A stretch of DNA of 64,000 bases from an uncultured Chloroflexia bacterium (GTDB lineage Bacteria; Chloroflexota; Limnocylindria; Limnocylindrales; CSP1-4), in the NCBI GenBank assembly GCA_963710105.1, contig CAVPYV010000001.1, positions 178,370 through 242,369 of the forward strand. Direction: 5' to 3'. Below the pieces are notes generated by a model. It was not told the DNA's origin, searched no databases, and saw nothing but the letters and a program-made list of their open reading frames with translations. The translations under genes were made by a program, and so were the position numbers. Shown here piece after piece: positions 30,169-45,087 of this stretch (position 1 is the first letter of the stretch; each line of letters begins with the position of its first letter).

Positions 30169-33100
30169 TCAGCCGCCGCTGAGCACGTCGTCGGTGTGGA
30201 CGAGGCCGACGTCGATCGGATGGTCGAAGGTCAGGATGATCGTGTGGCGCTCGGCGGGGCCCGGCCGGCAGGTCGCGTCCGGACCGAATGACAGGCCGAT
30301 CCAGGCCGTGCTCGTGTAGGTCAGCCGAAGCGGCTCGTCGCACACCCCGATCTCGAACCGGTAGGCGAGCTCCTCCGGGCGGTCGGTGGCGGCGACCTCG
30401 CGCAGCGGCCCATCCGCCGGCCCGATCCGGCGCCAGCCGCCGATCGTGGTCCCTGTGTCGACCCGAGCCGACACGATCGCGGCGCTCTGATCGGCGATCT
30501 CCAACAGGCTGACGGGCGAGGCGCCGACGGCCGGCAGGGAAAGATCGATCGTCGTCTTCAGCGCCACGCAGCAGCTTGGCCGATCCCAGACCCGGTCGCT
30601 GCCATCCGCGGTGAAGGCTGTCGTGACGACGCCGCGGGCCACGCCCGCGTCCGTCAGGTCGACGAGCCGGCGGATGACCCAGACGGCGGGCGAGCGGACG
30701 AGCTCGGTGTCCGCGTCGGCGATGTCCGGATCCATGATCGCCAGGTCCGCCCCCCGCAGGACCGTCAGCCAGGTCGCACGTGCCGGCCCCAGCTCGGCCT
30801 CGACACGGGCCAGCACGGCTTCGGGCGCCTCGGAAGCCGGTGTCAGGCGCACGGCGATGGCCTGCACCGGCGCTGGGGATGCGGAGCCCGCGCCGGCCTG
30901 CCAGACGAGGGCGTCGACGACGAATACCGCGTTCGCCGCGTATGTCCGGACTCGCGGGTCGGAGAAGTGCCCGAGGACGACGACAGGCCACGGCTCCGGC
31001 GTGCCGTCGGCCCAGGTGTCGGGCGTTGCGAAGGGCACGTCGACCGGGATGATCGGGTTGAGGTAGAAGCCTGTCGGCTGGCGGTCGAGATCGACCTTCT
31101 GCGGGTCGGCCCACAGCTGCTCCGGCCGATCCAGGAGCCAGTGGCGGCCCTGGCTGCACGGAATGCCGATGGGGCGCACGGGGTCGCGAAGCCCCGGACA
31201 CGCCGCGGCCGGGTCCGGCGGGACGTACCAGCCGCGGACGGCGACCTCGGCAGCGTCGTGCTGGGGGTGCAGCTGGAGGGTCGTGGGGACCGTCGCCACG
31301 GCCAGCCCGAGCACGGACGTCGGAGCGCCCTCGAAGGCATCCACACCGATCGGCGCCGTCGCTCTTGCAATGAAGAACGCTCGGATCCGGCCGTCGGCAT
31401 TCCAGAGGTTCAGGTAGGCCGCGTCGGTCGCGTCCTCGAACGTGGCCATCGCCGATCCGACCGCTGTTCCGTTCGGGATCGGTGAGATCGCACCGCCGGG
31501 GCAGGTCGTGTTCGTGAACAGCATTCCCGGGGTGGGGCAGAACATGCCACCGTGGAGGGCGATCCCGACGACCCGATCGGGTTGGCCGGCGAGCGCGACG
31601 ATGACGGCATCGGCTGCCGCCTCGCAGTCGCTCGCGGCGAGGCTGCCACAGTCGATCGCCGGTAGCACCCGCTGCTCGCCGGCGACCTCAGTGACGTCCG
31701 TCGACCCGTCGACGACGAGGAACGTGTGGGCGGTCGATCGGCCGTCGGTCCGGACGGCCGTGGTCACCAGCCAGAGCAGGCGTTGGCCCGTGAGCGCCGG
31801 ATCGCCGCTCAGGCCGGGCTCGACGTCGGCCAGGCGCTCGCCGGTCACGAGCTGGCGCGACAGGACGGTCTCGTCCGGCGCCACGGCCGCGACGAGCGCA
31901 TCGACCTGGGCCTCGGTCGTGGTCGGCGCGACGGTGACCATCAGCCGCGTCGTCTCGTCGAAGCGGTCGTTGTCGAGACGGGTCGCGACCGGGCGGGCGG
32001 CGTCGCCCACGAACGCGACGCGGTCGACGACGAACGTGTCCGTGCAGGGGGTTTCGGGCGTCTCGCCGGCGGGACAGGCGGCGGCGCGGCGATCGTCGAA
32101 GTGGCCGACGAGGACCACCGACACGGGGCCCGCCTGCCCGTCGCCGCGGGGCGGAAGCGGCTGGCCGACGAGAGCGAAGGACGGGTGGAACGCCGGTCCG
32201 CTGGGCGGGCCACCTGCCGTCGAGTCGCCCGTCGTGGTCCACAGGATCTCGGCCCGCTCCATCAGCCACTGGAAGGACTCCGGGCAGCGGATGGCGGTCG
32301 GGTTCCGGTCCCCGGGCTCGAACGGACAGAAGACGCCGGGGACGTCCGACAGGAAGCCGGCGACCACGATCTCCCGGTCGTCGACCCCGCTGTCGCGCAC
32401 GGCGAGCGCCTGGCTGACGGTGAGCGGGTCGCCGACGACCGCGCCGAGGTCGGGCGGCAGCGGCCCGGGGGCGGGCTCGCGGACGACCGGTCCGGCGGCG
32501 GTCATCTCGACGACGATCCCGCGCCCGTCCGCCGCGAGGAACGTCCGGACCGAGCGCGGCGCGCCGCTCCCGTCCGGGGCCGGGAGCGCCTGGATCAGGC
32601 GGATCACCGGGCCGTCGAGCGCGTCGGGGATGTCGGCCGGATCGATGAAGCTCGGCTCGAGCGCCGGCAGGTCGCCCGGCGTCGTCCGGCTCGAGGTCAC
32701 GACGATCAGCCCCGGAACCGCCTGACGGACGGCCTGCTCCGCCTCCTCGCGACCCGGATCGAGGACCGGCGCGATCCCGACCGCGACGCCGTCGACCTCG
32801 ACGACCCGGTCGACGAGGAACGACGTCCTGCAGGCGGCCTCCGAGCCGTTCGGGCAGGACGCGGCCCGCCGGTCCTCGAAGTGGCCGACCACGGTGACGG
32901 CCGTCGGGACCGCGTCGCCGACGAGCGGCACCTCACGGGTGCGCGGGAGGAACGTGAGATCGAAGACCGGGTGGAACGCCGGGCCCCGCGGGACGTGGAC
33001 CGTCACGTCGTTCAGCGTCCGGGTCACGACCGACTCCGGGTCCGCCATGAGCAGCGGCCAGCAGCGCGGGGCGAGGAGGTGCGAGCCGGCGTCGAAGGCC

Positions 33101-33540
33101 AGGTCGCAGTCGCTCCCGACGGGCCGGCCGTCGGTGACCGGCCCCGGGTCGTTCGAGAGGTAGCCCGAGACGAGCATCTCCCGATCGTCGGGCGTTGCGC
33201 TGTGGATGGCGACGGCATCCGCGACCCCCAGCGGGACCAGGCCGAGCTCGCGCGCCACGTCACCGATCGCCCCGCTCGCGGATGGGCTCGCGCTCGCGGC
33301 GGTCGAGGGACGGTTCACGAGGAGCGCCGTCGCGATCCCCCCGACCCCGACGACGGCGACGATCGCGGCCGCGGCGGCGAGGAGCGCCCAGGGCCGGGTC
33401 GCCGGCCGGCCGCGCTCGGCGGCGACCCGCTCGAGGACCGCGGCGGCGAGGTCCGGGGGGACGGGCGGCGTGGCGGCCGCTCTCGCGGCGAACGCGGCGG
33501 CGACCCGCTCGTCGCCCCAGCCGCCGACGCGGTCGGTCAT
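30169..33540 (-). CDS. Large membrane-anchored putative anti-sigma/sensor protein with three internal repeats
   Basis: Short cytoplasmic N-terminus, TM helix, about 1050 aa Cys-containing ectodomain; ATGA overlap with the ECF sigma gene. Confidence 0.75.
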   Translation of the reverse strand: MTDRVGGWGDERVAAAFAARAAATPPVPPDLAAAVLERVAAERGRPATRPWALLAAAAAIVAVVGVGGIATALLVNRPSTAASASPSASGAIGDVARELGLVPLGVADAVAIHSATPDDREMLVSGYLSNDPGPVTDGRPVGSDCDLAFDAGSHLLAPRCWPLLMADPESVVTRTLNDVTVHVPRGPAFHPVFDLTFLPRTREVPLVGDAVPTAVTVVGHFEDRRAASCPNGSEAACRTSFLVDRVVEVDGVAVGIAPVLDPGREEAEQAVRQAVPGLIVVTSSRTTPGDLPALEPSFIDPADIPDALDGPVIRLIQALPAPDGSGAPRSVRTFLAADGRGIVVEMTAAGPVVREPAPGPLPPDLGAVVGDPLTVSQALAVRDSGVDDREIVVAGFLSDVPGVFCPFEPGDRNPTAIRCPESFQWLMERAEILWTTTGDSTAGGPPSGPAFHPSFALVGQPLPPRGDGQAGPVSVVLVGHFDDRRAAACPAGETPETPCTDTFVVDRVAFVGDAARPVATRLDNDRFDETTRLMVTVAPTTTEAQVDALVAAVAPDETVLSRQLVTGERLADVEPGLSGDPALTGQRLLWLVTTAVRTDGRSTAHTFLVVDGSTDVTEVAGEQRVLPAIDCGSLAASDCEAAADAVIVALAGQPDRVVGIALHGGMFCPTPGMLFTNTTCPGGAISPIPNGTAVGSAMATFEDATDAAYLNLWNADGRIRAFFIARATAPIGVDAFEGAPTSVLGLAVATVPTTLQLHPQHDAAEVAVRGWYVPPDPAAACPGLRDPVRPIGIPCSQGRHWLLDRPEQLWADPQKVDLDRQPTGFYLNPIIPVDVPFATPDTWADGTPEPWPVVVLGHFSDPRVRTYAANAVFVVDALVWQAGAGSASPAPVQAIAVRLTPASEAPEAVLARVEAELGPARATWLTVLRGADLAIMDPDIADADTELVRSPAVWVIRRLVDLTDAGVARGVVTTAFTADGSDRVWDRPSCCVALKTTIDLSLPAVGASPVSLLEIADQSAAIVSARVDTGTTIGGWRRIGPADGPLREVAATDRPEELAYRFEIGVCDEPLRLTYTSTAWIGLSFGPDATCRPGPAERHTIILTFDHPIDVGLVHTDDVLSGG

Positions 33541-34115
33541 CGGCCGCGCTCCTCGTCGGCCCGGATCGCGGCCGCCAGGGCCTGCCGGGCGGCGAACAGC
33601 CGCGACTTCGCCGTGCCCTCGGGGACGTCGAGGATCAGGGCCAGCTCGGCGATCGGCCGCCCCTCGAGGTGGTGGAGGACGAGGATCGCCCGCTGCTCGA
33701 CGGGCAGCGTGGCGAGCGCCGCGTCGAGGACGGCCGCGTCGTCCGCCGGGGCTCCGGCGGCGCGCTCGGCGAGGGCGACGACGGTCGAGGAGGGGATCTC
33801 GCGGATCCGCCGCCGGCTCCGGGCGCGCAGCGTCATCCGCGACGCGTTCACCGCGATCCGCTGGAGCCACGCGTCGAGGCTCTCCGGCTCGCGGAGGCGG
33901 GGCAGCTGGCGCCATGCCGCGACGAACGTCTCCTGCGCGGCGTCGCGGGCGTCGGCCTCGTTGCCGAGGATCGCGCTGGTCAGTCGGTACACGGCATCCA
34001 TCCGGGCGCGGACGATCGTCTCGAACGCGTCGAGGTCACCGTTCCGGGCCCGGTCGATCAGCGACCGGTCGATCGCGGGTCCGATGCGCGTGTCCCTCCT
34101 GGCGCGTTCACCCAT
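33537..34115 (-). CDS. ECF RNA polymerase sigma factor (true start may be ATC 34085)
   Basis: RARNGDLDAFE, DARDAAQETF, WLQRIAVN, GTAKSRLFAAR. Confidence 0.92.
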   Translation of the reverse strand: MGERARRDTRIGPAIDRSLIDRARNGDLDAFETIVRARMDAVYRLTSAILGNEADARDAAQETFVAAWRQLPRLREPESLDAWLQRIAVNASRMTLRARSRRRIREIPSSTVVALAERAAGAPADDAAVLDAALATLPVEQRAILVLHHLEGRPIAELALILDVPEGTAKSRLFAARQALAAAIRADEERGR

Positions 34116-34218: not shown

Positions 34219-35577
34219 ATGGCGCGCATGACCGCCCGGCGGGGCTCGACGCTCAACCGCGACTACGAGCGACGCCCGTACTGGCACGCCACGATGCCGG
34301 GCCTGCCGTCGCGCCGCGATCGGCCGCTGCCGGACACCGCCGACGTGGTCGTGATCGGCGGCGGCTACACCGGGATCAACGCCGCCCGCGTCCTCGCCCG
34401 GGCGGGCGCCGCGGTGACCCTCCTGGAGGCCGAGCAGCTCGGCTTCGGCGGCTCGACGCGCAACGGCGGGATCGTCCACCCCGGCTTCAAGTGGAGCCCC
34501 GACCAGCTCGTCGCGCGCTACGGCGAGGACACCGGCGGGGCCCTGTTCCGCGAGACGATGGACGGCTACGAGCTCGTCAAGCGGCTGATCGCCGACGAGG
34601 CGATCGACTGCGAGTTCCGCGAGCGCGGCTTCCTCGACATCGCCTGGGCGCCGTCGCACGCCGAGCACCTCCGGGCGGAGGTCGCGACGCTCCGCCGGTT
34701 CGGCGTCGAGGCCGAGTACGTCCCGCGCGATCGGCTCCACGAGGAGATCGGCTCGAGCTTCTACCACGGCGGGCTCGTGTTCCCGCCGAGCGGCCTCCTC
34801 CACCCGGGCAAGTACTACGCCGGGCTCGCCGCCGCCGCCGACGCCGCCGGGGCCGATCTCCACGAGGGCGTCCGGGCCCGGACGATCCGCCGCCAGGCCG
34901 ACGGCCGCCTCGTCGTCGAGACCGACCGCGGCGCGATCCTGACGAAGGACGTCGTCATCGGGACGAACGGCTACACCGACGGCGTCGCGCCGAACCTCCG
35001 CCGCCGGGTGATCCCGATCGGGAGCTACATCATCGCGACCGAGCCGCTCCCCGAGGACCTGGCTCGGATCCTCTCGCCGAAGGGCCGCGCCTTCTTCGAC
35101 ACGAAGAACTTCCTCTACTACTGGCACGTGTCCGAGGACCGCCGGATGATCTTCGGCGGGCGGGCGAGCTTCCTGCCGACCTCGGTCGACCGCACGGCGG
35201 CGATCCTCCACAAGGGCATGCTCGAGGTCCATCCCCAGCTCGCCGGCTACCGCGTGGAGTACGCCTGGGGCGGCAACGTCGGCTTCACGTTCGATCGGAT
35301 GCCGCACGTCGGGCGGAAGGACGGGATCACGTACGCGACCGGCTGCTGCGGGACGGGCGTCGCGCTGATGACGGCGATGGGCACCGCGATCGGCGAGTGG
35401 CTCGGCGGCGGGCCGGCGCCGGTCCTCAGCCGGCTGCCGTTCCCGCTCGTCCCGGCGCCGTACGAGGGCCGGCCGTGGTTCCTGCCGTTCGCCGGCGAGT
35501 GGTTCCGCCTCCAGGACCGGCTCGCGCGGCGCGGTCGGGCCGGCGATCCGGACTCCGAGCGCGAACCGCGCACCTGA
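34219..35577 (+). CDS. FAD-dependent oxidoreductase (DAO/PuuB-like)
   Basis: VVIGGGYTG, GGSTRNGG, LHPGKY, TNGYT, WGG, GTGV. Confidence 0.88.
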   Translation: MARMTARRGSTLNRDYERRPYWHATMPGLPSRRDRPLPDTADVVVIGGGYTGINAARVLARAGAAVTLLEAEQLGFGGSTRNGGIVHPGFKWSPDQLVARYGEDTGGALFRETMDGYELVKRLIADEAIDCEFRERGFLDIAWAPSHAEHLRAEVATLRRFGVEAEYVPRDRLHEEIGSSFYHGGLVFPPSGLLHPGKYYAGLAAAADAAGADLHEGVRARTIRRQADGRLVVETDRGAILTKDVVIGTNGYTDGVAPNLRRRVIPIGSYIIATEPLPEDLARILSPKGRAFFDTKNFLYYWHVSEDRRMIFGGRASFLPTSVDRTAAILHKGMLEVHPQLAGYRVEYAWGGNVGFTFDRMPHVGRKDGITYATGCCGTGVALMTAMGTAIGEWLGGGPAPVLSRLPFPLVPAPYEGRPWFLPFAGEWFRLQDRLARRGRAGDPDSEREPRT

Positions 35578-35634: not shown

Positions 35635-36273
35635 TCAGCTTCCGACCGACACCGGCTCGACCGCGTCGTCGGCCGGGCCTTCGATCCGGCCGAGGTTGAC
35701 CATGAAGCGCGTGAACAGCGCGAGTCCGGTGCCCGCGAACAGGGCGAGGCCGAGCCACAGGATCGGCCGGGCCAGGTCGAGGTTCTCGCTGCTGATCAAG
35801 CTGGCCGGCAGGCTTCCGAGGTAGGCCTGGTCCGCCGCCTCCAGGCCGTAGACCTGCGGGACGATGTACAGGACGGAGGCGACGACGAGGAGGGCGCTGA
35901 ACAGGCGGAATGCGGTGGGATCGTCATCGGTGTCGCGGATCAGCTTCACGACGAGCGCCCAGAACAGCACGACGGCGGCAAGCGGGGCGGTGATCGGCAG
36001 GCCGACCTTCAGGTAGAGGTTCGGCATCAGGAAGATCATGCTCAGCCCGAGGGTGATGACGAGCAATGCGTCGCGGAACAGGACGTAGGACAGCCACCAG
36101 ACGTCGCCTCCGAAGCGGAGCGTCAGCCCGCCCAGGAACCGGATGACATACGGCCGGGCGAAATGAAGCACGAGGGTGAACGCCCACAGGATCGGCAGGA
36201 CGGCCGCGACGGACAGGACCAGCCAGCCCGAGGCACCCGTCGTCAGGGCGGTGGCGAGGTCGTCGGCGTTCAT
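35635..36273 (-). CDS. Uncharacterised polytopic membrane protein (paralog B)
   Basis: 5-6 hydrophobic segments; LHFARPY..LRFGGDVWW..Y...RD, LPIT. Confidence 0.8.
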   Translation of the reverse strand: MNADDLATALTTGASGWLVLSVAAVLPILWAFTLVLHFARPYVIRFLGGLTLRFGGDVWWLSYVLFRDALLVITLGLSMIFLMPNLYLKVGLPITAPLAAVVLFWALVVKLIRDTDDDPTAFRLFSALLVVASVLYIVPQVYGLEAADQAYLGSLPASLISSENLDLARPILWLGLALFAGTGLALFTRFMVNLGRIEGPADDAVEPVSVGS

Positions 36274-36899
36274 GCTGCGGTCTCCTCGATCGTCGTCGTG
36301 GGCGGCCGTCGGCCGGTGCCACGCAGGTTGTAGAGGACGGCGATGACGCCGCACGCTCCCGCCAGCAGGCCGGACAGGTAGCAGAGGGGGAGGGCGAGAT
36401 CAGGGTTCTTCGAGCTGACGAGCAGCGGCATGAGGACGTCGACCCGCTGCCCGGTGAGCTCCGTCATCTGGGTTCCGAGGAAATACGGAACGATGTAGAG
36501 GGCGGCGCCCAGGCCGATGAGGATCACCTGCCAGCGGTAGCCGTTCACGTCCCGGTCGCCCGCCGTGGTCAGCTTGATCAGCAGGGCCGCGAATGCGCAC
36601 ACGGCCGCGAGGCCGCCGGTGATCGGGAGGTCCTGGCCGGCGACGACGTCCGGGTAGAAGAAGATGAAGCTGCCGAGCAGGACCTGGACGAGGATGATGT
36701 CGCGCAGCCCGACGTAGATGATCCACCACAGGTCGGCGCCCAGCCGCAGGCTGAACTTGCCCGTGTTGCGGACCATGTACGGCCGGCCGAGGTGGAGCGC
36801 GACGGCGAGCATCCAGAGCACGACGAGCGCCGCCGCGATCGTCCCTTCGACGAAGTTCTCGCCCGCGTCGAAGAAGCCGGATACCTGGTCGGGAGTCAT
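36270..36899 (-). CDS. Uncharacterised polytopic membrane protein (paralog A)
   Basis: 5-6 hydrophobic segments; LHLGRPY..LRLGADLWW..Y...RD, LPIT; AGGAGG RBS and ATGA overlaps. Confidence 0.8.
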   Translation of the reverse strand: MTPDQVSGFFDAGENFVEGTIAAALVVLWMLAVALHLGRPYMVRNTGKFSLRLGADLWWIIYVGLRDIILVQVLLGSFIFFYPDVVAGQDLPITGGLAAVCAFAALLIKLTTAGDRDVNGYRWQVILIGLGAALYIVPYFLGTQMTELTGQRVDVLMPLLVSSKNPDLALPLCYLSGLLAGACGVIAVLYNLRGTGRRPPTTTIEETAA

Positions 36900-38920
36900 G
36901 CCATACCTCCTGTCGCTGTCGGGTGCTGCTCGTCGCCACGGGTCGGTCGGGAGACGGCGTCGCTCGCCGGTTGATCCTTCGGCGCGCGGTCGTCCGGCTC
37001 GCGGTCGTCCGGTCCGCGGCCGCCGATCACGTGGACGACGGTGCAGCCTTCGACCGCGTCGCAGCGGAAGCAGCGAGCTGCCTCGGCCCGGGCCATGGCC
37101 GGCTCGAACCCGCCCTGGGTCGGCGCGAACGATCGAGAGTCGACGATCGGCAACGCCGGGTGCAGGCGAGGGCGTCGCTCGAGATCGAGGTCGAGCTGGT
37201 GCTCGACCGCCGTCGCGTAGCGGACCGTTCGCAGGATCGCGGCCTCCCCATCGGGGACGCGGGCGAGGTATTCGTGGATGGAGCCGGCGGCCCGACGCCC
37301 GGCGGCAACCGCGTCGATGATGGTCTTCGGTCCGGACACGACGTCGCCGCCGGCGAAGATGCCGGCCCGCCCGGTGGCCATCGTCCGCGTGTCGGCGACG
37401 ACGCCCGCCCAGGCGCTGACCTCGATGCCGGTCCCCTCGGGCAGGATCGACGGATCGGGCTCCTCGCCGATCGCCACGAGGATCGTCCGTGCGGCCAGGT
37501 CCACCTGATCGGGTGCCGCGGACGCTGCCACGTCGGAGTCCGCGGTCGCCGACGAGGGGTCGCCGCTCGCGGGCCTCGCGGTCCGGCAGCGGAGTGCGAC
37601 GGCGGCTCCGTCGCGACTGACGACCTCGACGACCGTGAGCCCGGTCCGGATCACGACCCCCTCGCGCTCGGCCGCCTCGATCTCCTCGGCCTGGGCCGGC
37701 ATGTCCGATCGGGCGCGCCGATAGGCGATGGTCACCGATCCGGCTCCCGATCGGAGCGCGGACCGAGCCGCGTCCATCGCCGTGCTGCCGCCGCCGACGA
37801 CAACGACGTCCCCGCTCAGGGCCGGCGCCTCGCCGAGGTTCACGCGCTTCAGGAAGAGGGTCGCGGGGACGACCCCGGCGAGATCGTCGCCGGGGACGCC
37901 GAGGCGCCGGCTCTTGGAGGCTCCCGTCGCGAGGAACACCGCCCGGAAGCCCTGCCGCTCCAGGTCGCCGAGGGTGAAGTCGCGGCCCATGACCGCGTTC
38001 AGCCGGAGCTCCACCCCGAGCCCCACGATCCTGGCGATCTCCGCCTGGAGGACCTCTCGCGGCAGACGGTAGGCGGGGATCCCGATCGCCATCATTCCGC
38101 CCGGGACCGGCATCGCCTCGAAGACCGTCACCGGATAGCCGAGGCGCGCGAGGTACCACGCCGCCGACATGCCGGCCGGACCGCCGCCGACGATCGCGAT
38201 CTTCTCTGGTCGACGCGTCGCGGGCGGCGCGACGGCGGGGAGGGAGCCATGCTCCGCCGCGAACCGCTTGATCGTGCGGATCGAGATCGGCTCGTCGAGC
38301 ACGCCGCGACGGCAGGCGGCCTCGCACGGCGCCGTGCAGATCCAGCCGCAGACCGACGGGAACGGGTTGACTTCGGCGGCCACGGCTGAGGCGTCGTCAT
38401 AGCGGCCCTGGGCAACGAGCCCCACATAGCGGCCGGCGTCCGTCCCCGCCGGGCATGCCGCCTGGCATGGTGCCTGGTGCGCCGTGTCACTTCTCGGCCG
38501 GGTGGCGGCCGGCCAGCCAAGCGGACGACGGCCGGGACGCTCCACGCGGTCGCTCCAGGCCGCCGGATGTGCGGGCTTGAGGGATTCGAGCGTGATCGCC
38601 GACAACGGCGCCCAGGTTTCGCCCGGAGCGTGTGGTCGGTGAATGGGTCCCTGACGCGGCGCGAGGTCCGTCGGGCCCGGCTGGGTCGCCAGGGTCATCA
38701 CGGTGACCGGGCATTGCTCGACGCAGATCGAGCACCCGATGCACTCGCCGACCTGGACCGGGTGCTCCATCGTCCAGGGAAGGGCTCGGGCGAAGCCCAG
38801 GCCCGCCTCGATCCCGGGTCGCGCCGGCCGGCTCATGTCGAGCGCCTCGACCGGGCAGACGTCCATGCAGATGCCGCAGTTGATGCAGCCGCCGTGATCG
38901 ATGTCGATCCGATAGCCCAT
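36896..38920 (-). CDS. Fe-S flavoprotein: N-terminal 2x[4Fe-4S] ferredoxin plus GltD/PreT/SudA-like NAD(P)H oxidoreductase
   Basis: CINCGICMDVCP, CIGCSICVEQCP, APCQAACP, CGWICTAPCEAAC, GGGPAG, GGGSTAMD, YRR, RCFRC. Confidence 0.9.
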   Translation of the reverse strand: MGYRIDIDHGGCINCGICMDVCPVEALDMSRPARPGIEAGLGFARALPWTMEHPVQVGECIGCSICVEQCPVTVMTLATQPGPTDLAPRQGPIHRPHAPGETWAPLSAITLESLKPAHPAAWSDRVERPGRRPLGWPAATRPRSDTAHQAPCQAACPAGTDAGRYVGLVAQGRYDDASAVAAEVNPFPSVCGWICTAPCEAACRRGVLDEPISIRTIKRFAAEHGSLPAVAPPATRRPEKIAIVGGGPAGMSAAWYLARLGYPVTVFEAMPVPGGMMAIGIPAYRLPREVLQAEIARIVGLGVELRLNAVMGRDFTLGDLERQGFRAVFLATGASKSRRLGVPGDDLAGVVPATLFLKRVNLGEAPALSGDVVVVGGGSTAMDAARSALRSGAGSVTIAYRRARSDMPAQAEEIEAAEREGVVIRTGLTVVEVVSRDGAAVALRCRTARPASGDPSSATADSDVAASAAPDQVDLAARTILVAIGEEPDPSILPEGTGIEVSAWAGVVADTRTMATGRAGIFAGGDVVSGPKTIIDAVAAGRRAAGSIHEYLARVPDGEAAILRTVRYATAVEHQLDLDLERRPRLHPALPIVDSRSFAPTQGGFEPAMARAEAARCFRCDAVEGCTVVHVIGGRGPDDREPDDRAPKDQPASDAVSRPTRGDEQHPTATGGMA

Positions 38921-39052
38921 GGCCCGCCTCCGTCCGTCGTGCTCGGCACCGCGAGCATCGGACGGGCGGCCAGCGGGCGCCACCCTCGTCGGGAGCGGCC
39001 GGCCCCCATCCCTTCGGGCTGGGAGCGGCGGGCCGTTCGGCACGGCCGTCGA

Positions 39053-39691
39053 TCACCCGTCCCGGGTCAACCCCTCGCGCAGGGCGCGCGTCGCGAGCTC
39101 GGTCCGGCTCTCGGCGTGGAGCTTCTCGAGGATGTTCCGGAGGTGGAACTTGGCCGTGTTCTCCGAGATCCCCAGGCGTGCGGCGATCTCCTTGTTGCGC
39201 AGCCCGGCTGTGACCAGCCCGAGGACGTCGAGCTCGCGGGCCGTGAGCGGGCTCTGGATGTCGGCCGATTCCGCCCTCGGGCGGGCGAACTCGCGGATGA
39301 TCCGGAACGCCGTCGCGGGCGAGATCGCCGCATCGCCCCGGGCGATCGACTCGAGCATCGCCCGCAGCTCTCGCGCCTCGAGGTTCTTGAGGAGGTAGCC
39401 GCGGGCGCCGGCCTTGATCGCCTCGAACAGGTCGTCCTCATCCTCGGACACGGTGAGCATGACGATCGCGATCGCGGGATGGTCGCGCGCGATGCGGCGG
39501 GTCGCCTCCAGCCCGGACGAGCCCGGCATCCGGACGTCCATCAGGACGACGTCGGGCTCGAGCTCGTCCGCCAGGCGGACCGCCTGCTCACCGTCGCCCG
39601 CCTGGCCCACGACCTCGTGGCCCCACGCCGCGAGCAGCGAGGCCACACCGTCGCGGACGAGGGCGTGATCGTCGGCGAGAAGGACGCGCAT
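39053..39691 (-). CDS. NarL/LuxR family response regulator
   Basis: LADDH, DVVLMDVRMP, GYLLK, LTARELDVL..NKEIA. Confidence 0.95.
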   Translation of the reverse strand: MRVLLADDHALVRDGVASLLAAWGHEVVGQAGDGEQAVRLADELEPDVVLMDVRMPGSSGLEATRRIARDHPAIAIVMLTVSEDEDDLFEAIKAGARGYLLKNLEARELRAMLESIARGDAAISPATAFRIIREFARPRAESADIQSPLTARELDVLGLVTAGLRNKEIAARLGISENTAKFHLRNILEKLHAESRTELATRALREGLTRDG

Positions 39692-41010
39692 CAGGTCGCC
39701 TCGATGGCCGTGCCGCGAAGCGGCACCGCCAGTCGGATGAATCCGCCGCCCCTGTCGGCGGTGCCCCACGAGATCCGGGCGCCGATGTCGGACGCCCGCT
39801 CGCGCATCGCCGCCTGGCCATAGTGCGGCCAGGCGGAGGACTGCCAGGGGCTCGGCTCCGCGAACCCGCGACCGTCGTCCACGAGCTCGACGAGGAGGTC
39901 GTCGCCGACTCGATCGAGGCGCACCGCAACGCGTCCGGCCGCGGCGTGCTTGCGCACGTTCGTGAGGCTTTCCTGGACGATCCGGAACACCTGCGCCTCG
40001 GCCTCGGACCCCATGGCCACGGCGCGTGCCGCCGCCGACGCGTCGACGGTGACGACCAGCTTCGAGGCCTCGGCGAAGCGCCGGGCGTAATCCTCGATCG
40101 CGCCGATGAGGCCCAGCTCGGGGGTGATCGGGCTGCGCAGGCCGAGGATCGCCTCGCGGACATCGACGTAGATCGATCGGGCGGCGGCCGTCAGCTCGCC
40201 CAGCTGGCCTCGGGCATCGGCAACCCGGCCGACTGCGAGCAGCTCGTCGGCGGCCTGCGACTTCGTGCTCACGTAGCCGAGGACCTGGGCCAGACCGTCG
40301 TGCATCTCCCGGGCGATGCGCTCGCGCTCGGTCTCGACCGCAAGCTCGCGAAGGCGGGCCTGGAGCCGCGCGTTCTCGATGGCGATCGACGCCTGGTTGG
40401 CCAGCGATGCCAGCGTCTCGACGGCATCCGCGTTGAATGACCGCGCGCTCCGGGACCCGACGAGCAGGGTGCCGATCGTCTCGGAGCCCCGACTCAGCGC
40501 GCTCGCCAGGCGGCTCGTGGCCAAGGCCGGCGGGAGGAACAACAGCACCTCGTCGCGAGCCGCGGGATCCGGACCCGGGCCCCCGATATCGTCCGGGATC
40601 GGGCCGCTCGAGGCGGCCCGCTTCAGGCGACCATCGGCGTCGACGAGGAGGATCAGCGCGACGTCCGCCCGGAGGAGCGTCCGCGCGTTGTCGACGATCG
40701 CGTCGAGGATCAGGTGGAGGTCGACCAGGGCGGTGATGGCGACGCTCACCCGGTGGAGGGCCGCTGCCGAGACCGCGCGCGTCTCGAGCTCGCGGTTGCG
40801 CGCCGCCAGGACGGCCCCAAGCGCGTCGATCCGGCGATAGGCCGCTCCGGACAGGGCCAGGGTCAGAACGAACACCACGATGGTCACGACCAGCGCATCC
40901 CCCGGGAAGGGCAGGATCGGGTCGAGCACCGTGTCGCTGAGCGCCTCGATGACCCCGACCACCAGCGCGGGAAGGGCGACGATCAGCCAGCGATCTCGAG
41001 ACACGGCCAT
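39691..41010 (-). CDS. Sensor histidine kinase (2 TM + GAF + HisKA_3 + HATPase)
   Basis: ERERIAREMHDGLAQ, QESLTNVRKHA, DDGRGF, AIENARL. Confidence 0.93.
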   Translation of the reverse strand: MAVSRDRWLIVALPALVVGVIEALSDTVLDPILPFPGDALVVTIVVFVLTLALSGAAYRRIDALGAVLAARNRELETRAVSAAALHRVSVAITALVDLHLILDAIVDNARTLLRADVALILLVDADGRLKRAASSGPIPDDIGGPGPDPAARDEVLLFLPPALATSRLASALSRGSETIGTLLVGSRSARSFNADAVETLASLANQASIAIENARLQARLRELAVETERERIAREMHDGLAQVLGYVSTKSQAADELLAVGRVADARGQLGELTAAARSIYVDVREAILGLRSPITPELGLIGAIEDYARRFAEASKLVVTVDASAAARAVAMGSEAEAQVFRIVQESLTNVRKHAAAGRVAVRLDRVGDDLLVELVDDGRGFAEPSPWQSSAWPHYGQAAMRERASDIGARISWGTADRGGGFIRLAVPLRGTAIEAT

Positions 41011-41637: not shown

Positions 41638-41964
41638 GTGCCTGTTCTGGCGACCTACTTCTCCGTGCGCCGCGGTCGGGACGCCTTCTTCAAGTTCTAC
41701 ATGCGGACCCTGTTCGCCCGCCAGGTGCGCGAGTACGAGGCGAAATACGGGATCCGCTTCCTCGGTTGGTACAACGTCGCCCACGGCTGGGACTTCGACA
41801 ACGTGATCCTGCTCGATCTCCCGGACTACGCGACACTGGACAAGCTCGAGGCGGATGAGGGCCTGCGGGCGCTCGGCCACCGTGCCGGCGAATGGATCTT
41901 CCAACGTCACCACTCGATGTTCCTGCGAGAGCGGATGGGTCCCGACCTCGAGTACCACGGCTGA
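41638..41964 (+). CDS. Small protein, probable dimeric alpha-beta barrel (NIPSNAP/GYD-like)
   Basis: GGAGGAGG RBS; GIRFLGWY..WDFDNVILLDLPDY pattern. Confidence 0.65.
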   Translation: MPVLATYFSVRRGRDAFFKFYMRTLFARQVREYEAKYGIRFLGWYNVAHGWDFDNVILLDLPDYATLDKLEADEGLRALGHRAGEWIFQRHHSMFLRERMGPDLEYHG

Positions 41965-42032
41965 AGCCGGGAGCCCCGATGACGATCCGACGCACCGCAA
42001 CACCACAGCCGAACGATGGGAGGCGATCCGCC

Positions 42033-43067
42033 ATGGACACGAGCCGCAACGACCTGCTCGGCGAGATCGCGGCCGACGCCGCCCTCGAGCGGTCCGATTT
42101 CCTCGTCCAGTCGACCGAGCAGCTGCGCAAGTTCCTCAACGCGAACAAGGAGCGGATCAGCGAGCTCGGTGGGCTGGTCCTGATCGACGAGGACCCCGAC
42201 TACCTGTCGATCGCGCCGGACCTGACGTTCCGCAGCCGGACGCGCTACCTCGACGAGGTGACCGACGAGTGGACGGCGGAGACCGAGGTCATCGAGACCG
42301 CGGCCGAGCTCGTCGAGCTCTACAACCCGGCCGACCTCTACCAGGCCTTCGCCGAGGCCGCCCGTGAGGCGGCCGGCCTCGAGGCGGAGCCGACGGCCGA
42401 GGCCGAGGTCCTCGACGCTGCCGGGATCGGGACGGCCGAAGGCGTCACGGTCGGTGGCCACGACCCGTACGCCGCGGCCGCCGACGAGTGGGCCGCGACG
42501 CAGCCGGAGCCGGTCGAGGTCGACGACGACGAGCTCGCCGCCCAGCGCCTGTACGACCTCGCCCTCGAGTTCCAGGAGCGGAGCCAGCGCAACGAGGCGC
42601 GCCTCCTCGAGCAGTTCGAGGACGCGTCGTCGGTCCTGATCAGCAAAATCGGCGACCTGATCGTCAACGACGACGACGACGAGCGGCTGACCCTGACCGC
42701 CTCGGGCGAGTTCCGGGCCGAGGTCCTCACCGAGGAGGACAACGAGTGGCGGCCGCTGGCGAGCGCCGAGGAGCTCGTCGAGTACTACGACCCGACGGAC
42801 GTGTTCGGCGACCTGGCGGACGCCCTCGCCGAGGCCTTCCCGTCGATTGCCCCGGAGGTCGCTGTCTTCGAGGCCGGAGCGGAGGGGGCCGCCGGCGAGG
42901 CGGAGACCGGCGACGACGACGACGACGACGAGGACGACGACGACGAGTCCGACGACGACGAGTCCGACGACGAATCCGACGACGACGACGAGTCCGACGA
43001 GAGCGCGCCGTCCGACGCGGCCGGCGAGGGCGACGGCGCGACCCCGGAGGGCGACGCCCGGCGGTGA
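42033..43067 (+). CDS. Highly acidic hypothetical protein with an internal domain duplication and poly-D/E tail
   Basis: GGGAGG RBS; two similar halves; GTGA overlap with pyrK. Confidence 0.8.
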   Translation: MDTSRNDLLGEIAADAALERSDFLVQSTEQLRKFLNANKERISELGGLVLIDEDPDYLSIAPDLTFRSRTRYLDEVTDEWTAETEVIETAAELVELYNPADLYQAFAEAAREAAGLEAEPTAEAEVLDAAGIGTAEGVTVGGHDPYAAAADEWAATQPEPVEVDDDELAAQRLYDLALEFQERSQRNEARLLEQFEDASSVLISKIGDLIVNDDDDERLTLTASGEFRAEVLTEEDNEWRPLASAEELVEYYDPTDVFGDLADALAEAFPSIAPEVAVFEAGAEGAAGEAETGDDDDDDEDDDDESDDDESDDESDDDDESDESAPSDAAGEGDGATPEGDARR

Positions 43068-43930
43068 CGCTGCCCCTGGTCCGAGCCGGGCTGGTCGACA
43101 GCCGCGAGATCCTCCCGGGCCAGTGGCTGCTCTCGCTCCGCGCGCCGGAGATCGCGAACGCGTCGCGGGCCGGCCAGTTCCTCCACGTCCGGACGGCGGA
43201 CGCCTCGGGCCTCGTGCTCCGACGACCGTTCCCGATCCGGACCGCGGATCCCGGGAGCGGTCTCGTCACGATCCAGTGCCGATCGGCGGACCGCGGGTCC
43301 GACTGGTTCGTCCGCCTCAGGCCGGGAGACGCGGTCGAGCTCGCCGGGCCGCTCGGCCGGCCGTTCGAGGTCGACCCGCGCTCGCGCCACCTCCTGCTGA
43401 TCGCGGGCGGCGTCGGGATCGCGGCCGTCCGCGCCCTCGCCGACGAGGCGATCCGTGACGGACGCCAGGTCACCCTCCTGTTCGGTGCCGGGTCGGCCCG
43501 CGAGGTTCATCCGTCGTCGCTCCTGCCCGACGAGGTCGAGTACGTGATCGCGACCGCCGACGGCTCCGTCGGGCAGCGCGGCGCGGTCACGGACCTCGTC
43601 CCCGCCTACGAGGCGTGGGCCGATCAGGCGTTCGCGGCCGGCCCTCGCCCGATGCTGGCGACGCTCGCCCATCTGGCCGCCGGGCGGCGGGGGCGGCTCG
43701 GCGTGGCGACGCTCGGTCGGAAGCGCGGCGGCGGGCGGGTCGACCCGCCCGGGTCGCCGGCGGCCCGCCGCAAGGTCTTCCTCCAGGTCGTCATCGACCA
43801 CTCGATCGGTTGCGCGGCGGCGACCTGCCTCGGCTGTGTCGTGCTCGGTGCCGGCGGCCAGCCGCAGCGCGCCTGTCGCGAGGGGCCGGTCTTTGCCGCC
43901 GACGAGATCGCCTGGGAGTCGCCCTGGTGA
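43064..43930 (+). CDS. pyrK: Dihydroorotate dehydrogenase electron-transfer subunit
   Basis: AGQF, LRRPF, GPLGRPF, AGGVG, CAAATCLGC..ACREGPVF. Confidence 0.85.
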   Translation: MTLPLVRAGLVDSREILPGQWLLSLRAPEIANASRAGQFLHVRTADASGLVLRRPFPIRTADPGSGLVTIQCRSADRGSDWFVRLRPGDAVELAGPLGRPFEVDPRSRHLLLIAGGVGIAAVRALADEAIRDGRQVTLLFGAGSAREVHPSSLLPDEVEYVIATADGSVGQRGAVTDLVPAYEAWADQAFAAGPRPMLATLAHLAAGRRGRLGVATLGRKRGGGRVDPPGSPAARRKVFLQVVIDHSIGCAAATCLGCVVLGAGGQPQRACREGPVFAADEIAWESPW

Positions 43931-45087
43931 GGGCCAAGCGCAAGGTCACGACGACGCCGGTCACCCGTCGCGGCGGGATCCAGCGCGGCCCGACGCCGCG
44001 CCGGAAGCAGGGACCCGCGGGCTCGCTCCCGGCCCTGCCGGCGTCGCCGGCTCCCGCGCGTCCTGCCCCGGGCGCCCGCATCGATGCGGCGACGCCTCCG
44101 CTGCTGCCGCAGCCGCCCGTGCCGGTCGAGGTCGACCTCGCCGTCGACCTGGGCCGCGGGCTGATCCTGCGGACCCCGATCCTCGCCGCCGCCGGAGCGT
44201 TCGGGTACGGCACGGAGCACGGGGACGACGTGGACGTGGCTCGTCTCGGGGCGATCTGCACGCGGGGCACGACGCGTCGGGCGCGGATCGGCAACGCCGG
44301 GCCGCGGATGATCGAGGTCGCGGGCGGCCTGCTGAACGGCGTGGGGCTCCAGAACCCCGGGATCGACGCCGTCGTCGAGAAGTACGCGCCGCTCTGGGCG
44401 ACCTGGCGGACGCCGGTGATCGTCAACGTGGCCGGCGAGACCGTCGCGGATTACGTCGAGATCGTCCGGCGCCTGGAGGGGGTGTCCGGCATCGCCGGCA
44501 TCGAGCTGAACCTGTCCTGCTCGAACCGGGCGCGCGGCGGGCTGCAGTTCGGGCTGGACGCGGCCGCGGCCGGGGAGCTCACGGCGGCCGTTCGCCGCGC
44601 GACGGACCTGCCGCTCGTCGCGAAGCTGTCGCCGAACGCGACCGACGTGCGATCCGTCGCGCGGGCCGCCGCAGCCGCGGGCGCCGACGCGCTGAGCGCG
44701 ATCAACACGGTCAGCGGGATGGCGGTGGGTCCGTCCCGGACGGGTCCGCTCCTCGGCAGCACCTACGGCGGGCTGTCCGGGCCCGCGATCCGGCCGATCG
44801 CCCTGCGGATCGTCCACGAGGTCGCCGGCGCGGTCGACATCCCGGTCATCGCGGTCGGCGGGGTGTCCGCGATCGGCGACGTCCTCGACTTCCTGGCGGC
44901 CGGCGCGGTCGCGGTCCAGGTCGGCACGGCGCTGTTCGCCGATCCGGACCTGCCGGCCCGGCTCGCCGACGAGCTGGTCGAGGCCCGCCGCCGGCGCGGG
45001 CTGACCACGTACGCGGACCTGGTCGGGACGGCCCAGGCGAAGAAGGCCGGCCCGCCGTCGACGAGCGGGGCCGAGTACCGCCCTTAG
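43927..45087 (+). CDS. pyrD: Dihydroorotate dehydrogenase class 1B catalytic subunit
   Basis: LNGVGLQNPG, ELNLSCSN, AKLSPN, AINT, GGLSGPAIRP; long N-terminal extension, start uncertain. Confidence 0.9.
   Translation: MRAKRKVTTTPVTRRGGIQRGPTPRRKQGPAGSLPALPASPAPARPAPGARIDAATPPLLPQPPVPVEVDLAVDLGRGLILRTPILAAAGAFGYGTEHGDDVDVARLGAICTRGTTRRARIGNAGPRMIEVAGGLLNGVGLQNPGIDAVVEKYAPLWATWRTPVIVNVAGETVADYVEIVRRLEGVSGIAGIELNLSCSNRARGGLQFGLDAAAAGELTAAVRRATDLPLVAKLSPNATDVRSVARAAAAAGADALSAINTVSGMAVGPSRTGPLLGSTYGGLSGPAIRPIALRIVHEVAGAVDIPVIAVGGVSAIGDVLDFLAAGAVAVQVGTALFADPDLPARLADELVEARRRRGLTTYADLVGTAQAKKAGPPSTSGAEYRP

Follow-up and report, generated by a model that had tools for sequence, protein, structure and literature searches.

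The window analysed here, a 64,000-nucleotide (nt) stretch of contig CAVPYV010000001.1 from an uncultured Chloroflexia bacterium, carries at 35635-41010 five co-oriented genes, all placed on the minus strand by the positions of their open reading frames (ORFs), in agreement with a first-pass annotation made from the sequence alone. A sensor histidine kinase and a NarL-type response regulator, which that annotation had put ahead of an operon and whose Pfam domains bear out both assignments, are followed by a flavoprotein with iron–sulfur (Fe–S) clusters and by two small membrane proteins, here called memA and memB (Table 1). The unit is well delimited and widespread. Its membrane part belongs to no named family, is without a solved relative and has been assigned no role, and yet it goes gene for gene with an electron-transfer protein.

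The flavoprotein, whose most likely start is the ATG at 38920, and the two membrane proteins form the operon proper. Their genes overlap by ATGA at 36899-36896 (flavoprotein/memA) and 36273-36270 (memA/memB), exactly where these overlaps had been placed before, and each overlap is preceded by a GGAGG-like site, which suggests translational coupling. Identical gene order recurs in dozens of genomes at identities down to about 40–45%, and the operon is therefore far beyond chance. The datasets listed for it include no RNA; the DNA datasets come from soil or groundwater metagenomes, none with a share above 0.29.

Table 1 Features of the locus, in order of transcription, with the evidence for each
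Feature	Position	Strand	Evidence or description
Sensor histidine kinase	39691..41010	-	Two N-terminal hydrophobic segments, then GAF, HisKA_3, HATPase_c (Pfam; hydropathy)
NarL/LuxR-type response regulator	39053..39691	-	Response_reg and GerE (Pfam)
Regulator–flavoprotein spacer, 132 nt	38921..39052	-	GGAGG before the flavoprotein ATG
Flavoprotein, 674 amino acids	36896..38920	-	ATG at 38920 behind GGAGG
Dicluster ferredoxin and Trp-rich linker (residues 1-145)	38486..38920	-	Pfam Fer4 families, dicluster at residues 6-74
GltD/NfnB/StnC-like NADPH-FAD module (residues 148-554)	37259..38479	-	Fer4_20 and two Rossmann folds
C-terminal Cys motif C617-x2-C620-x5-C626 (RCFRCDAVEGC)	37043..37072	-	Ortholog alignment
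memA, 209 amino acids	36270..36899	-	Five predicted transmembrane helices; N-terminus outside, C-terminus inside
memB, 212 amino acids	35635..36273	-	memA paralogue, identical five-helix plan

The flavoprotein

The Pfam domains agree with the earlier reading of a 2x[4Fe-4S] ferredoxin fused ahead of a GltD-type module, which by comparison with its relatives would bind flavin adenine dinucleotide (FAD) and the reduced nicotinamide cofactor NADPH and consists here of Fer4_20 at residues 148-224 (58.5 bits; Pfam cut-off 25.8) and Pyr_redox_2 at residues 240-541 (117.9 bits; cut-off 26.1). Solved relatives span residues about 148-624 and include NfnA (9n5u, E 4.1e-97), 9bov (E 2.1e-96), StnC (8oh5_C, E 3.1e-89), NfnB (4ylf_B, E 1.7e-74; also 5jca) and GltD (6s6s_G, E 6.9e-52). 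The protein stays below the cut-off of every NCBIfam model, the best being PRK12771 (445.1 against 516 bits), and falls outside the curated equivalogs of the GltD, NfnB, AegA and YgfK types (gltA TIGR01316, 291.6 against 471.75). To judge by its domains, the flavoprotein is a new arrangement within a known family.

An alignment of the flavoprotein with 31 full-length orthologues and one ferredoxin-only protein contains 17 conserved cysteines, eight of them in the ferredoxin domain (12, 15, 18, 22, 60, 63, 66 and 70) and six in Fer4_20 (152, 156, 191, 195, 199 and 203), the remainder being C617, C620 and C626. The C-terminal RCFRC remarked on in the first-pass annotation is real and lies within the motif formed by these last three residues, which is invariant or nearly so in the 32 full-length sequences aligned; the C617-C626 stretch still aligns with StnC, 9bov and the NCBIfam models PRK12771 and PRK12814. 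Also conserved are an insert between the two cluster motifs of the ferredoxin domain, LDM[ST]RP...WMMExPVQ, and residues W103, P105, L106, T110, W136 and Q137 of the Trp-rich linker.

By analogy, the closest working model for the NADPH module would be the GltD-like part of StnC (residues 102-565), which according to the StnABC paper is a non-bifurcating NADPH input feeding a [4Fe-4S] chain (PMC10482914). The flavoprotein has no signal peptide and must therefore sit on the cytoplasmic side. Four further GltD-like paralogues are encoded in the genome, none with a ferredoxin domain. One of them, 40% identical to flavoprotein residues 150-556, is found outside the window about 2.5 kilobases (kb) from nuoH (G000:C2:101094-102341 and G000:C2:97446-98576), and may be an NADPH input tied to the complex I genes.

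The membrane protein family

memA and memB had been taken for paralogues on the strength of shared motifs; these motifs are present, and the two proteins are 40% identical over 163 residues (E 5e-32). The AlphaFold model of memA, obtained with a 43-row alignment, is a confident one and comprises five long and three short helices (predicted local distance difference test, pLDDT, 88.6; predicted template modeling score, pTM, 0.80). Three lines of evidence agree on a topology with the N-terminus outside and the C-terminus inside: some homologues have cleavable-looking signal peptides and outside domains before helix 1, the tail and the loops that follow helices 1 and 3 are enriched in Lys and Arg, and the N-terminus and the remaining loops are acidic. 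Taken together, the homologue signal peptides, the charge counts and the five-helix model would place the conserved R/K/Y/W/D motifs on the cytoplasmic side.

Conserved residues are found in layers. The layer at the cytoplasmic boundary is made up of [HQ]36, R39, P40, Y41, R52, D56, W59, K109 and D115, that in mid-membrane of R66 and D67, and that at the outer face of P83, D84 and N165 together with Q144 in memA or E145 in memB and, in the memA type only, E14 and E18. The invariant residues of memA include E14, E18, D56, R66 and K109, and H36, R39, Y41, R52, D67 and N165 are nearly invariant (at least 90%), as is Q144; in memB the E14/E18 pair is missing and E145 is nearly invariant. The alignments contain no conserved Cys and no second conserved His in either protein. 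Members of the family share five helices, the motifs [HQ]-L-x-R-P-Y and L-R-L-G-A-D-x-W-W, an R-D pair within helix 2, a K-L pair where helix 3 ends, and an adjoining dicluster ferredoxin with the WMMExP insert.

The His at position 36, which had been proposed to provide one heme ligand per subunit, is present in 40 of 43 memA-type and 37 of 42 memB-type rows. Across a diverse set of 23 members the position is held by His in 13, Gln in 8, Tyr in one and Asn in one; Gln, the usual substitute, also occupies it in four of six sampled members of the single-copy clade described below, and Phe occurs among members as well. The heme-ligand proposal is weakened by replacement with Gln, Tyr, Phe or Asn in many members and by the lack of a second conserved His or Cys, and the H/Q interchange fits a hydrogen-bond donor better than a metal ligand.

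A minority of family members carry outside extensions, which are absent from memA and memB of the window. In some homologues (P0166, P0274), a signal peptide and a predicted mature N-terminal His are combined with an immunoglobulin (Ig)-like β-sandwich containing HEM...HEMMVM, and in others (P0165, P0190, P0168) the extensions are rich in His, Asp and Glu. A single-sequence model of the outside domain at locus L071 (pLDDT 71.9) retrieved generic Ig-like β-sandwiches with Foldseek (best E 1.4e-3) and no copper protein among the matches listed, and the outside domain of P0166 gave only TIG/MG2-type leads in the ESM Atlas, with scores of at most 0.88. A copper role for the Ig-like domain would be a guess.

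The statement that the membrane proteins match no described family is upheld by hidden Markov model (HMM) searches of Pfam, NCBIfam and the PDB sequences. Neither memA nor memB has a Pfam or NCBIfam match at E ≤ 0.1; when 23 diverse members were compared with Pfam at E ≤ 5, no family was found in more than two of them; and a profile of 43 memA sequences obtained a single match among the PDB sequences, with E 1.1. With the memA model as query, Foldseek found nothing in the PDB at E ≤ 0.001 (best query-normalised template modeling score, TM-score, 0.33), and the highest Z among 48,161 chains compared by VIA-align was 9.6, for designed four-helix bundles, which is under the chance level for helical models. 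On these model comparisons, no known family is indicated, and we do not claim a new fold. In the ESM Atlas, the best score for memA, a weak lead, was 0.75, to an unnamed cluster with Nitrate_red_gam (PF02665) in 10% of its members.

Membership in the NarI family was considered and rejected: hhalign of A1, A2 and A4 against 11 Chloroflexota NarI-family sequences returned probabilities of 0.3, 0.7 and 0.2%. In the fold comparisons, the best 50 rows of Foldseek and of VIA-align include no NarI-type chain. No paper describing the memA/memB family, its partnership with a ferredoxin or the three-gene unit was found in full-text literature searches judged by listings and abstracts. As far as these searches and the family libraries show, the family and its obligate ferredoxin partnership are undescribed.

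Linkage, core and distribution

The association of the membrane proteins with the flavoprotein was assessed in a sample of 401 Chloroflexota genomes. A memA match is present in 39 of these, 33 of which have exactly two adjacent matches. A reciprocal search of the same genomes with flavoprotein residues 1-145, i.e., ferredoxin plus linker (E ≤ 1e-12), detected this part in 36 genomes, every one of them memA-positive and with the match always neighbouring memA, and in none of the 362 memA-negative genomes. The memA-positive genomes without a ferredoxin match are G301, in which the flavoprotein is truncated, G097, with a marginal memA match (E 3.7e-4), and G257, which is 79% complete and has a fragment where a contig begins. 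By genome and neighbourhood counts alike, the co-occurrence assumed in the first-pass annotation is near-obligate.

Two sets of loci, which have genomes in common and are not independent, give the same picture at the level of gene order. Among the 38 memA loci from the 401-genome sample, a full flavoprotein lies directly upstream of memA in 35, the exceptions being a truncated flavoprotein (L034), a second copy without flavoprotein (L041) and a locus with the ferredoxin part only (L048). The other set comes from 185,579 species, each represented by one genome, in which a pattern scan yielded 372 confirmed matches, of which 80 loci were kept; the full flavoprotein is present in 70, five are cut by a contig end, one has no upstream DNA, three are ferredoxin-only and one is the truncated copy already counted in the first set. 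memB is directly downstream of memA in 37/38 and 77/80 loci, respectively, and the rest are cut by contig ends. Unsupervised clustering of the neighbours of 118 loci, with counts from a crude gene caller that misses genes, recovered the flavoprotein in 108, memA/memB in 107, the regulator in 51 and the kinase in 39, and nothing else that is widely recurrent; 14 loci have universal stress protein genes and five have phosphoketolase with acetate kinase, in both cases mostly in Ktedonobacteria. No soluble partner of the GltB, NfnA, PreA, DsrAB or HydBC-like kind recurs among these neighbours, in keeping with the earlier remark that none adjoins the flavoprotein here.

The ferredoxin-only loci point to what is constant in these systems. 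Paired-type variants without the NADPH module are found at L048/L131, L071, L090 and L192; at L090 and L192 the ferredoxin gene lies between memA and memB, whereas the L071 ferredoxin, whose gene has a 4-nt overlap with the membrane gene, retains the Trp-rich linker. When metagenome contigs were scanned with the divergent members of the family, 80 loci were obtained, 43 of the paired type and 37 with a single membrane gene. In this single-copy clade, a stand-alone ferredoxin homologous to flavoprotein residues 1 to about 90-130 (30–45% identity) is encoded directly downstream on the same strand at 33/37 loci, with gaps of -80 to +321 nt; at one further locus the ferredoxin gene is divergent, two are at a contig edge and one is without ferredoxin. 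Nothing further recurs beside these gene pairs, and one member of the clade is labelled 'archaeon' by its source. Since the ferredoxin-only variants and the single-copy clade lack the NADPH module, the universal core is, on this comparison of loci, the membrane protein together with a dedicated dicluster ferredoxin with the special insert, and not the GltD module.

memA and memB are an old paralogous pair always kept together. In a quick maximum-likelihood tree, the A (36 rows), B (35) and single-copy (35) sequences each occupy one side of a branch, with support of 95, 97 and 99, respectively, in the Shimodaira–Hasegawa-like approximate likelihood ratio test (SH-aLRT), and the internal order is similar in the A and B groups; the tree is rooted only at the midpoint. 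The simplest history would be a single membrane gene with a ferredoxin, then one duplication to A and B, and then fusion of the ferredoxin with the NADPH module. The single-copy form might be the ancestral, homodimeric version.

According to record titles, the operon is carried by Limnocylindria, Ktedonobacteria, Dehalococcoidia, Anaerolineae and Dormibacterota. The closest named relatives of memA are labelled Candidatus Limnocylindrales, and one carrier is in culture, Ktedonobacter sp. SOSP1-85 (L100). Presence is patchy, with 11 positive genomes among 23 in the window's own family. At E ≤ 0.001 the family comprises 2914 clusters at 90% identity; a HMMER search of the whole library with memB returned only 204 representatives at 50% identity, some of them longer or very divergent, and the family is therefore compact. 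As for whether the triplet and the two-component pair travel together across genomes, the triplet does recur, whereas the kinase and regulator accompany it in Limnocylindria, Anaerolineae and some Dehalococcoidia and do not adjoin it in Ktedonobacteria; in Dormibacterota only the regulator is linked to the operon.

Several individual loci deserve mention in their own right. At L034/L127, both from genome G301, regulator residues 2-85 run into flavoprotein residues 284-604 with memA and memB intact, which looks like a deletion that fused or killed the regulator and flavoprotein genes. L040 and L041 (G320:C2), about 14 kb apart, are two memA–memB copies with identical memB and a flavoprotein beside one copy only, the match to which breaks in two at about residue 424-431; to judge by the small ORFs repeated at their flanks, a mobile segment may have duplicated the locus recently. 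At L053 (G165), genes for TusA-like (CPxP motif), DsrE-like and pyridine-nucleotide-disulfide oxidoreductase proteins, recognized from their translations alone, lie 3-5 kb upstream of the operon; this set of neighbours does not recur at other loci. L079 (titled Nitrosotalea sp.) and L131 (titled Candidatus Solibacter sp.) are Dormibacterota-like and Chloroflexota-like operon contigs, the latter being the same contig as G110, which a genome search places in the window's phylum; the names are likely binning or labelling errors.

Upstream of the operon in the window, the regulator ATG shares one base with the kinase TGA, for which reason the regulator start is taken as 39691 and not as the GTG at 39769. 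The nearest NCBIfam models of the kinase, MctS, NarQ and NarX, are all far under their cut-offs, and its PDB matches span the catalytic part only and suggest no ligand for the GAF domain; for the regulator NarL ranks first, with 166 bits where the cut-off is 250. The spacer ahead of the flavoprotein contains a 14-nt direct repeat, GGGAGCGGC[CG]GGCC, at 38991-39004 and 39021-39034 (30 nt apart), which may be a site for the regulator or may have arisen by chance in GC-rich DNA, the G+C content of the surrounding stretch being 68–74%. A consensus scan found neither a sigma-70-like promoter nor an intrinsic terminator.

The genes flanking the five are of other kinds. A FAD oxidoreductase of the DAO family (34330-35577, plus strand) is convergent with memB and is not a recurrent neighbour. 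On the other side, a 391-residue, very acidic protein (41892-43067, plus strand) with a long C-terminal tail rich in Asp, Glu and Ser belongs to no Pfam family, and is followed by a PyrK-like electron-transfer subunit (DHODB_Fe-S_bind) and PyrD (DHO_dh) at 43088-45087 (plus strand), a separate pair that is not conserved beside the operon; PyrK has the fold type of NfnA. Farther out, at 30169-33915 and 33537-34115 (both minus strand), are a protein of more than 1100 residues without a Pfam match and a sigma factor of the extracytoplasmic function (ECF) type; the large protein, which follows the sigma factor, is rich in Pro and Arg at its N-terminus, contains a single hydrophobic segment, and might act as an anti-sigma-like partner.

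Working model, alternatives and known systems

From the linkage described above, we consider it probable that the flavoprotein, memA and memB form one membrane-attached electron-transfer complex. The system as a whole would then be a heme-free, membrane-bound, NAD(P)H-dependent Fe–S oxidoreductase most likely reducing menaquinone, a reading of the sequences to which we assign a probability of roughly 35%. In the scheme we infer, which extends to complex formation, the direction of electron flow, the docking face and the acceptor, hydride from NAD(P)H would be taken up in the cytoplasm at the GltD/NfnB/StnC-like FAD module, and single electrons would pass through the two [4Fe-4S] clusters of this module to the two [4Fe-4S] clusters of the N-terminal ferredoxin domain. 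The ferredoxin domain, with its insert and Trp-rich linker, would dock on the basic and conserved cytoplasmic face of a memA–memB heterodimer, a face made up of [HQ]-L-x-R-P-Y at the end of helix 1, L-R-L-G-A-D-x-W-W at the start of helix 2, and K109/D115. Its fixed pairing with a cofactor-less five-helix protein argues for such docking, as does the invariant Arg/Lys/Tyr/Trp/Asp cluster at the cytoplasmic boundary, and the electron of the last cluster would then leave at or in the membrane. A complex prediction for memA, memB and flavoprotein residues 1-145 scored the ferredoxin partner at 0.15 and 0.25 against a mark of 0.32 and is no evidence either way.

The memA–memB pair would carry neither heme nor a cluster of its own and would offer the final acceptor, most likely menaquinone, a site close to the cytoplasmic surface, as in the heme-free anchors of succinate:quinone reductases; the complex would in effect be an NAD(P)H:quinone oxidoreductase built of parts not seen before. 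A quinone pool is to be expected because the genome encodes NuoH, and by analogy quinone is our tentative choice of final acceptor. The kinase and regulator would switch the operon on, and the neighbours in Ktedonobacteria, universal stress proteins and in some cases phosphoketolase and acetate kinase, hint at energy or oxygen limitation.

Several observations weigh against this scheme. The quinone site is derived only from residue types and analogy, and it is not obvious why a simple quinone pocket facing the cytoplasm should require R66 and D67, conserved in mid-membrane, or the conserved outer-face residues E14, E18, P83, D84, Q144/E145 and N165, all of which would suit a trans-membrane pathway. 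Complex I is already encoded in the genome, the patchy distribution within a single family makes the function dispensable, and the minimal ferredoxin-only systems have no obvious donor nearby. In addition, the Ig-like or His/Met/acid-rich extensions of some homologues point to a ligand outside the cell.

One alternative, which we regard as unlikely, is a CcoG-like reductase of metal ions or oxyanions, in which memA and memB would bind or conduct an ion such as Cu(II), Fe(III) or a toxic oxyanion and present it at the cytoplasmic face to the ferredoxin clusters, to be reduced there with electrons from NAD(P)H. A review describes CcoG as a membrane-embedded cupric reductase that contains two [4Fe-4S] clusters as well as Cu sites, may have an Ig-like domain in the periplasm, and has a physiological donor yet to be found (PMC7558416). 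The lists of parts are strikingly parallel, though homology was not detected. The N-terminal His and the HEM...HEMMVM sandwich of P0166 and P0274, the His/Asp/Glu-rich extensions of the other homologues, the invariant outer-face acids E14, E18 and D84 of memA, and the R66–D67 pair in mid-membrane could all be accommodated by such a function. The membrane part, however, has no conserved Cys, Met or His of the kind that a Cu(I) path would need, and the extensions are confined to a minority of members and are not those of the window. Moreover, the outside domain, from a model with a pLDDT of 72, is only generically Ig-like, with no copper protein among the matches listed; FixG_C is matched neither by P0166 at E ≤ 5 nor among the best 25 of the 44 families obtained for the 23 members; and no metal-homeostasis gene recurs nearby.

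The conserved mid-membrane and outer-face charges look like a line across the membrane, from which a redox-driven ion translocator, or the reverse, could be construed: H+ or Na+ would move along the charged residues of memA–memB in a small energy-converting module. Conserved polar or charged residues are available for this at the inner (R39, R52, D56, K109, D115), middle (R66, D67) and outer (E14, E18, D84, Q144/E145, N165) levels, and the ferredoxin partner is strictly conserved. Paired paralogous membrane subunits also recall RnfA/E and NqrD/E. Pairs of the RnfA/E type, however, hold a cluster through Cys residues that memA and memB lack, no second redox partner is defined, and the ten helices in total have no homology to a known pump; inferred purely from residue positions, this arrangement appears improbable to us.

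We consider it equally improbable that memA and memB are only a tether or sensor, with a soluble protein or metabolite as acceptor for what would be a soluble NADPH:ferredoxin-type enzyme. The lack of cofactor ligands in memA and memB, the soluble partners normally served by GltD/NfnB-type modules and the adjoining two-component system are compatible with that role. About ten invariant polar residues across bacteria and archaea-like lineages would not be expected of a tether, and neither would the persistent ferredoxin pairing in minimal two-gene systems; furthermore, no soluble partner gene recurs nearby. Finally, a cytochrome-b-like anchor in which one His per subunit ligates a heme between memA and memB, to which the paralogous pair with its recall of SdhC/SdhD and the His frequently found in both paralogues close to where helix 1 ends lend some appeal, is very improbable, given the substitutions at this position, its location at the cytoplasmic membrane boundary beside the R-P-Y motif, hhalign probabilities below 1% for the Nitrate_red_gam profile and the absence of a Pfam match to any cytochrome b family.

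The menaquinone-reducing oxidoreductase favored above can be set in a wider frame, in which memA/memB and the dedicated dicluster ferredoxin might be an unrecognised, cofactor-free module linking low-potential electrons to the membrane, extended in Chloroflexota and Dormibacterota by fusion to an NADPH-oxidising GltD unit; we put this forward as a rather doubtful possibility. If it were true, complex I, NDH-2 and NQR would be joined, through the fusion, by a further class of respiratory enzyme that oxidizes NAD(P)H with quinone; should the line of charged residues be a conduction path, the module would instead be a very small redox-coupled translocator of ions or metal. The carriers matter because Limnocylindria, Ktedonobacteria and Dormibacterota abound in soil and are for the most part uncultured, and almost all that is known of their energy metabolism comes from annotation. 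With an NAD(P)H:quinone or ferredoxin:quinone oxidoreductase at this locus, metabolic models of these lineages would miss an entry point to the respiratory chain, and with metal or ion handling, a new small redox-coupled membrane device would be at hand. Ktedonobacter sp. SOSP1-85 is cultured, and the question can therefore be tested at the bench.

The overall plan, a peripheral flavin/Fe–S arm on a small membrane anchor, is already known. Flavoprotein residues 148-624 align end to end with StnC 101-567, 9bov, NfnB and GltD, and share with them the Fer4_20 Cys pattern and both Rossmann folds. The flavoprotein differs from these enzymes in its N-terminal 2x[4Fe-4S] ferredoxin, the family-specific insert and the Trp-rich linker, and in having no conserved GltB, NfnA, PreA or HydBC-type partner, its sole fixed partners being the two membrane proteins.

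Compared with the SdhC/SdhD anchors, including heme-free ones, a paralogous pair of small membrane proteins is likewise encoded with an Fe–S and flavin peripheral arm, and Arg, Asp, Tyr, Trp and His/Gln of memA and memB are found at the cytoplasmic membrane boundary, where Sdh-type enzymes bind quinone through such residues. memA and memB, however, have five helices each instead of three, gave no match to these anchors in sequence or profile searches and nothing informative in fold comparisons, and have NAD(P)H via the GltD module as predicted donor in place of succinate. The five-helix di-heme anchors NarI, DsrM and HdrE (PF02665) resemble them in helix number and in working with a cytoplasmic Fe–S partner, and NarI also has its N-terminus outside and its C-terminus inside. 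In contrast to this family, memA and memB lack the four heme-ligand His, having one semi-conserved His per protein, and neither they (E ≤ 0.1) nor the 23 diverse members (E ≤ 5) match it in Pfam.

CcoG/FixG offers the likeness of a membrane protein that works with two cytoplasmic [4Fe-4S] clusters and has an optional Ig-like domain outside. There, clusters and helices are in one polypeptide, whereas here the clusters are on a separate protein; no shared domain was detected, copper ligands are not conserved, and the memA/memB systems include the link to an NADPH module. A last parallel is the hand-off between MerT and MerA, in which a metal ion is passed by a membrane importer to a flavoprotein reductase that uses NADPH in the cytoplasm, so that a small membrane protein is again encoded with an NADPH-dependent flavoprotein of the pyridine-nucleotide-disulfide family. 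In contrast to that system, neither memA/memB nor the active-site region of the flavoprotein has a Cys pair, and electrons would exit via Fe–S clusters and not through a redox-active disulfide.

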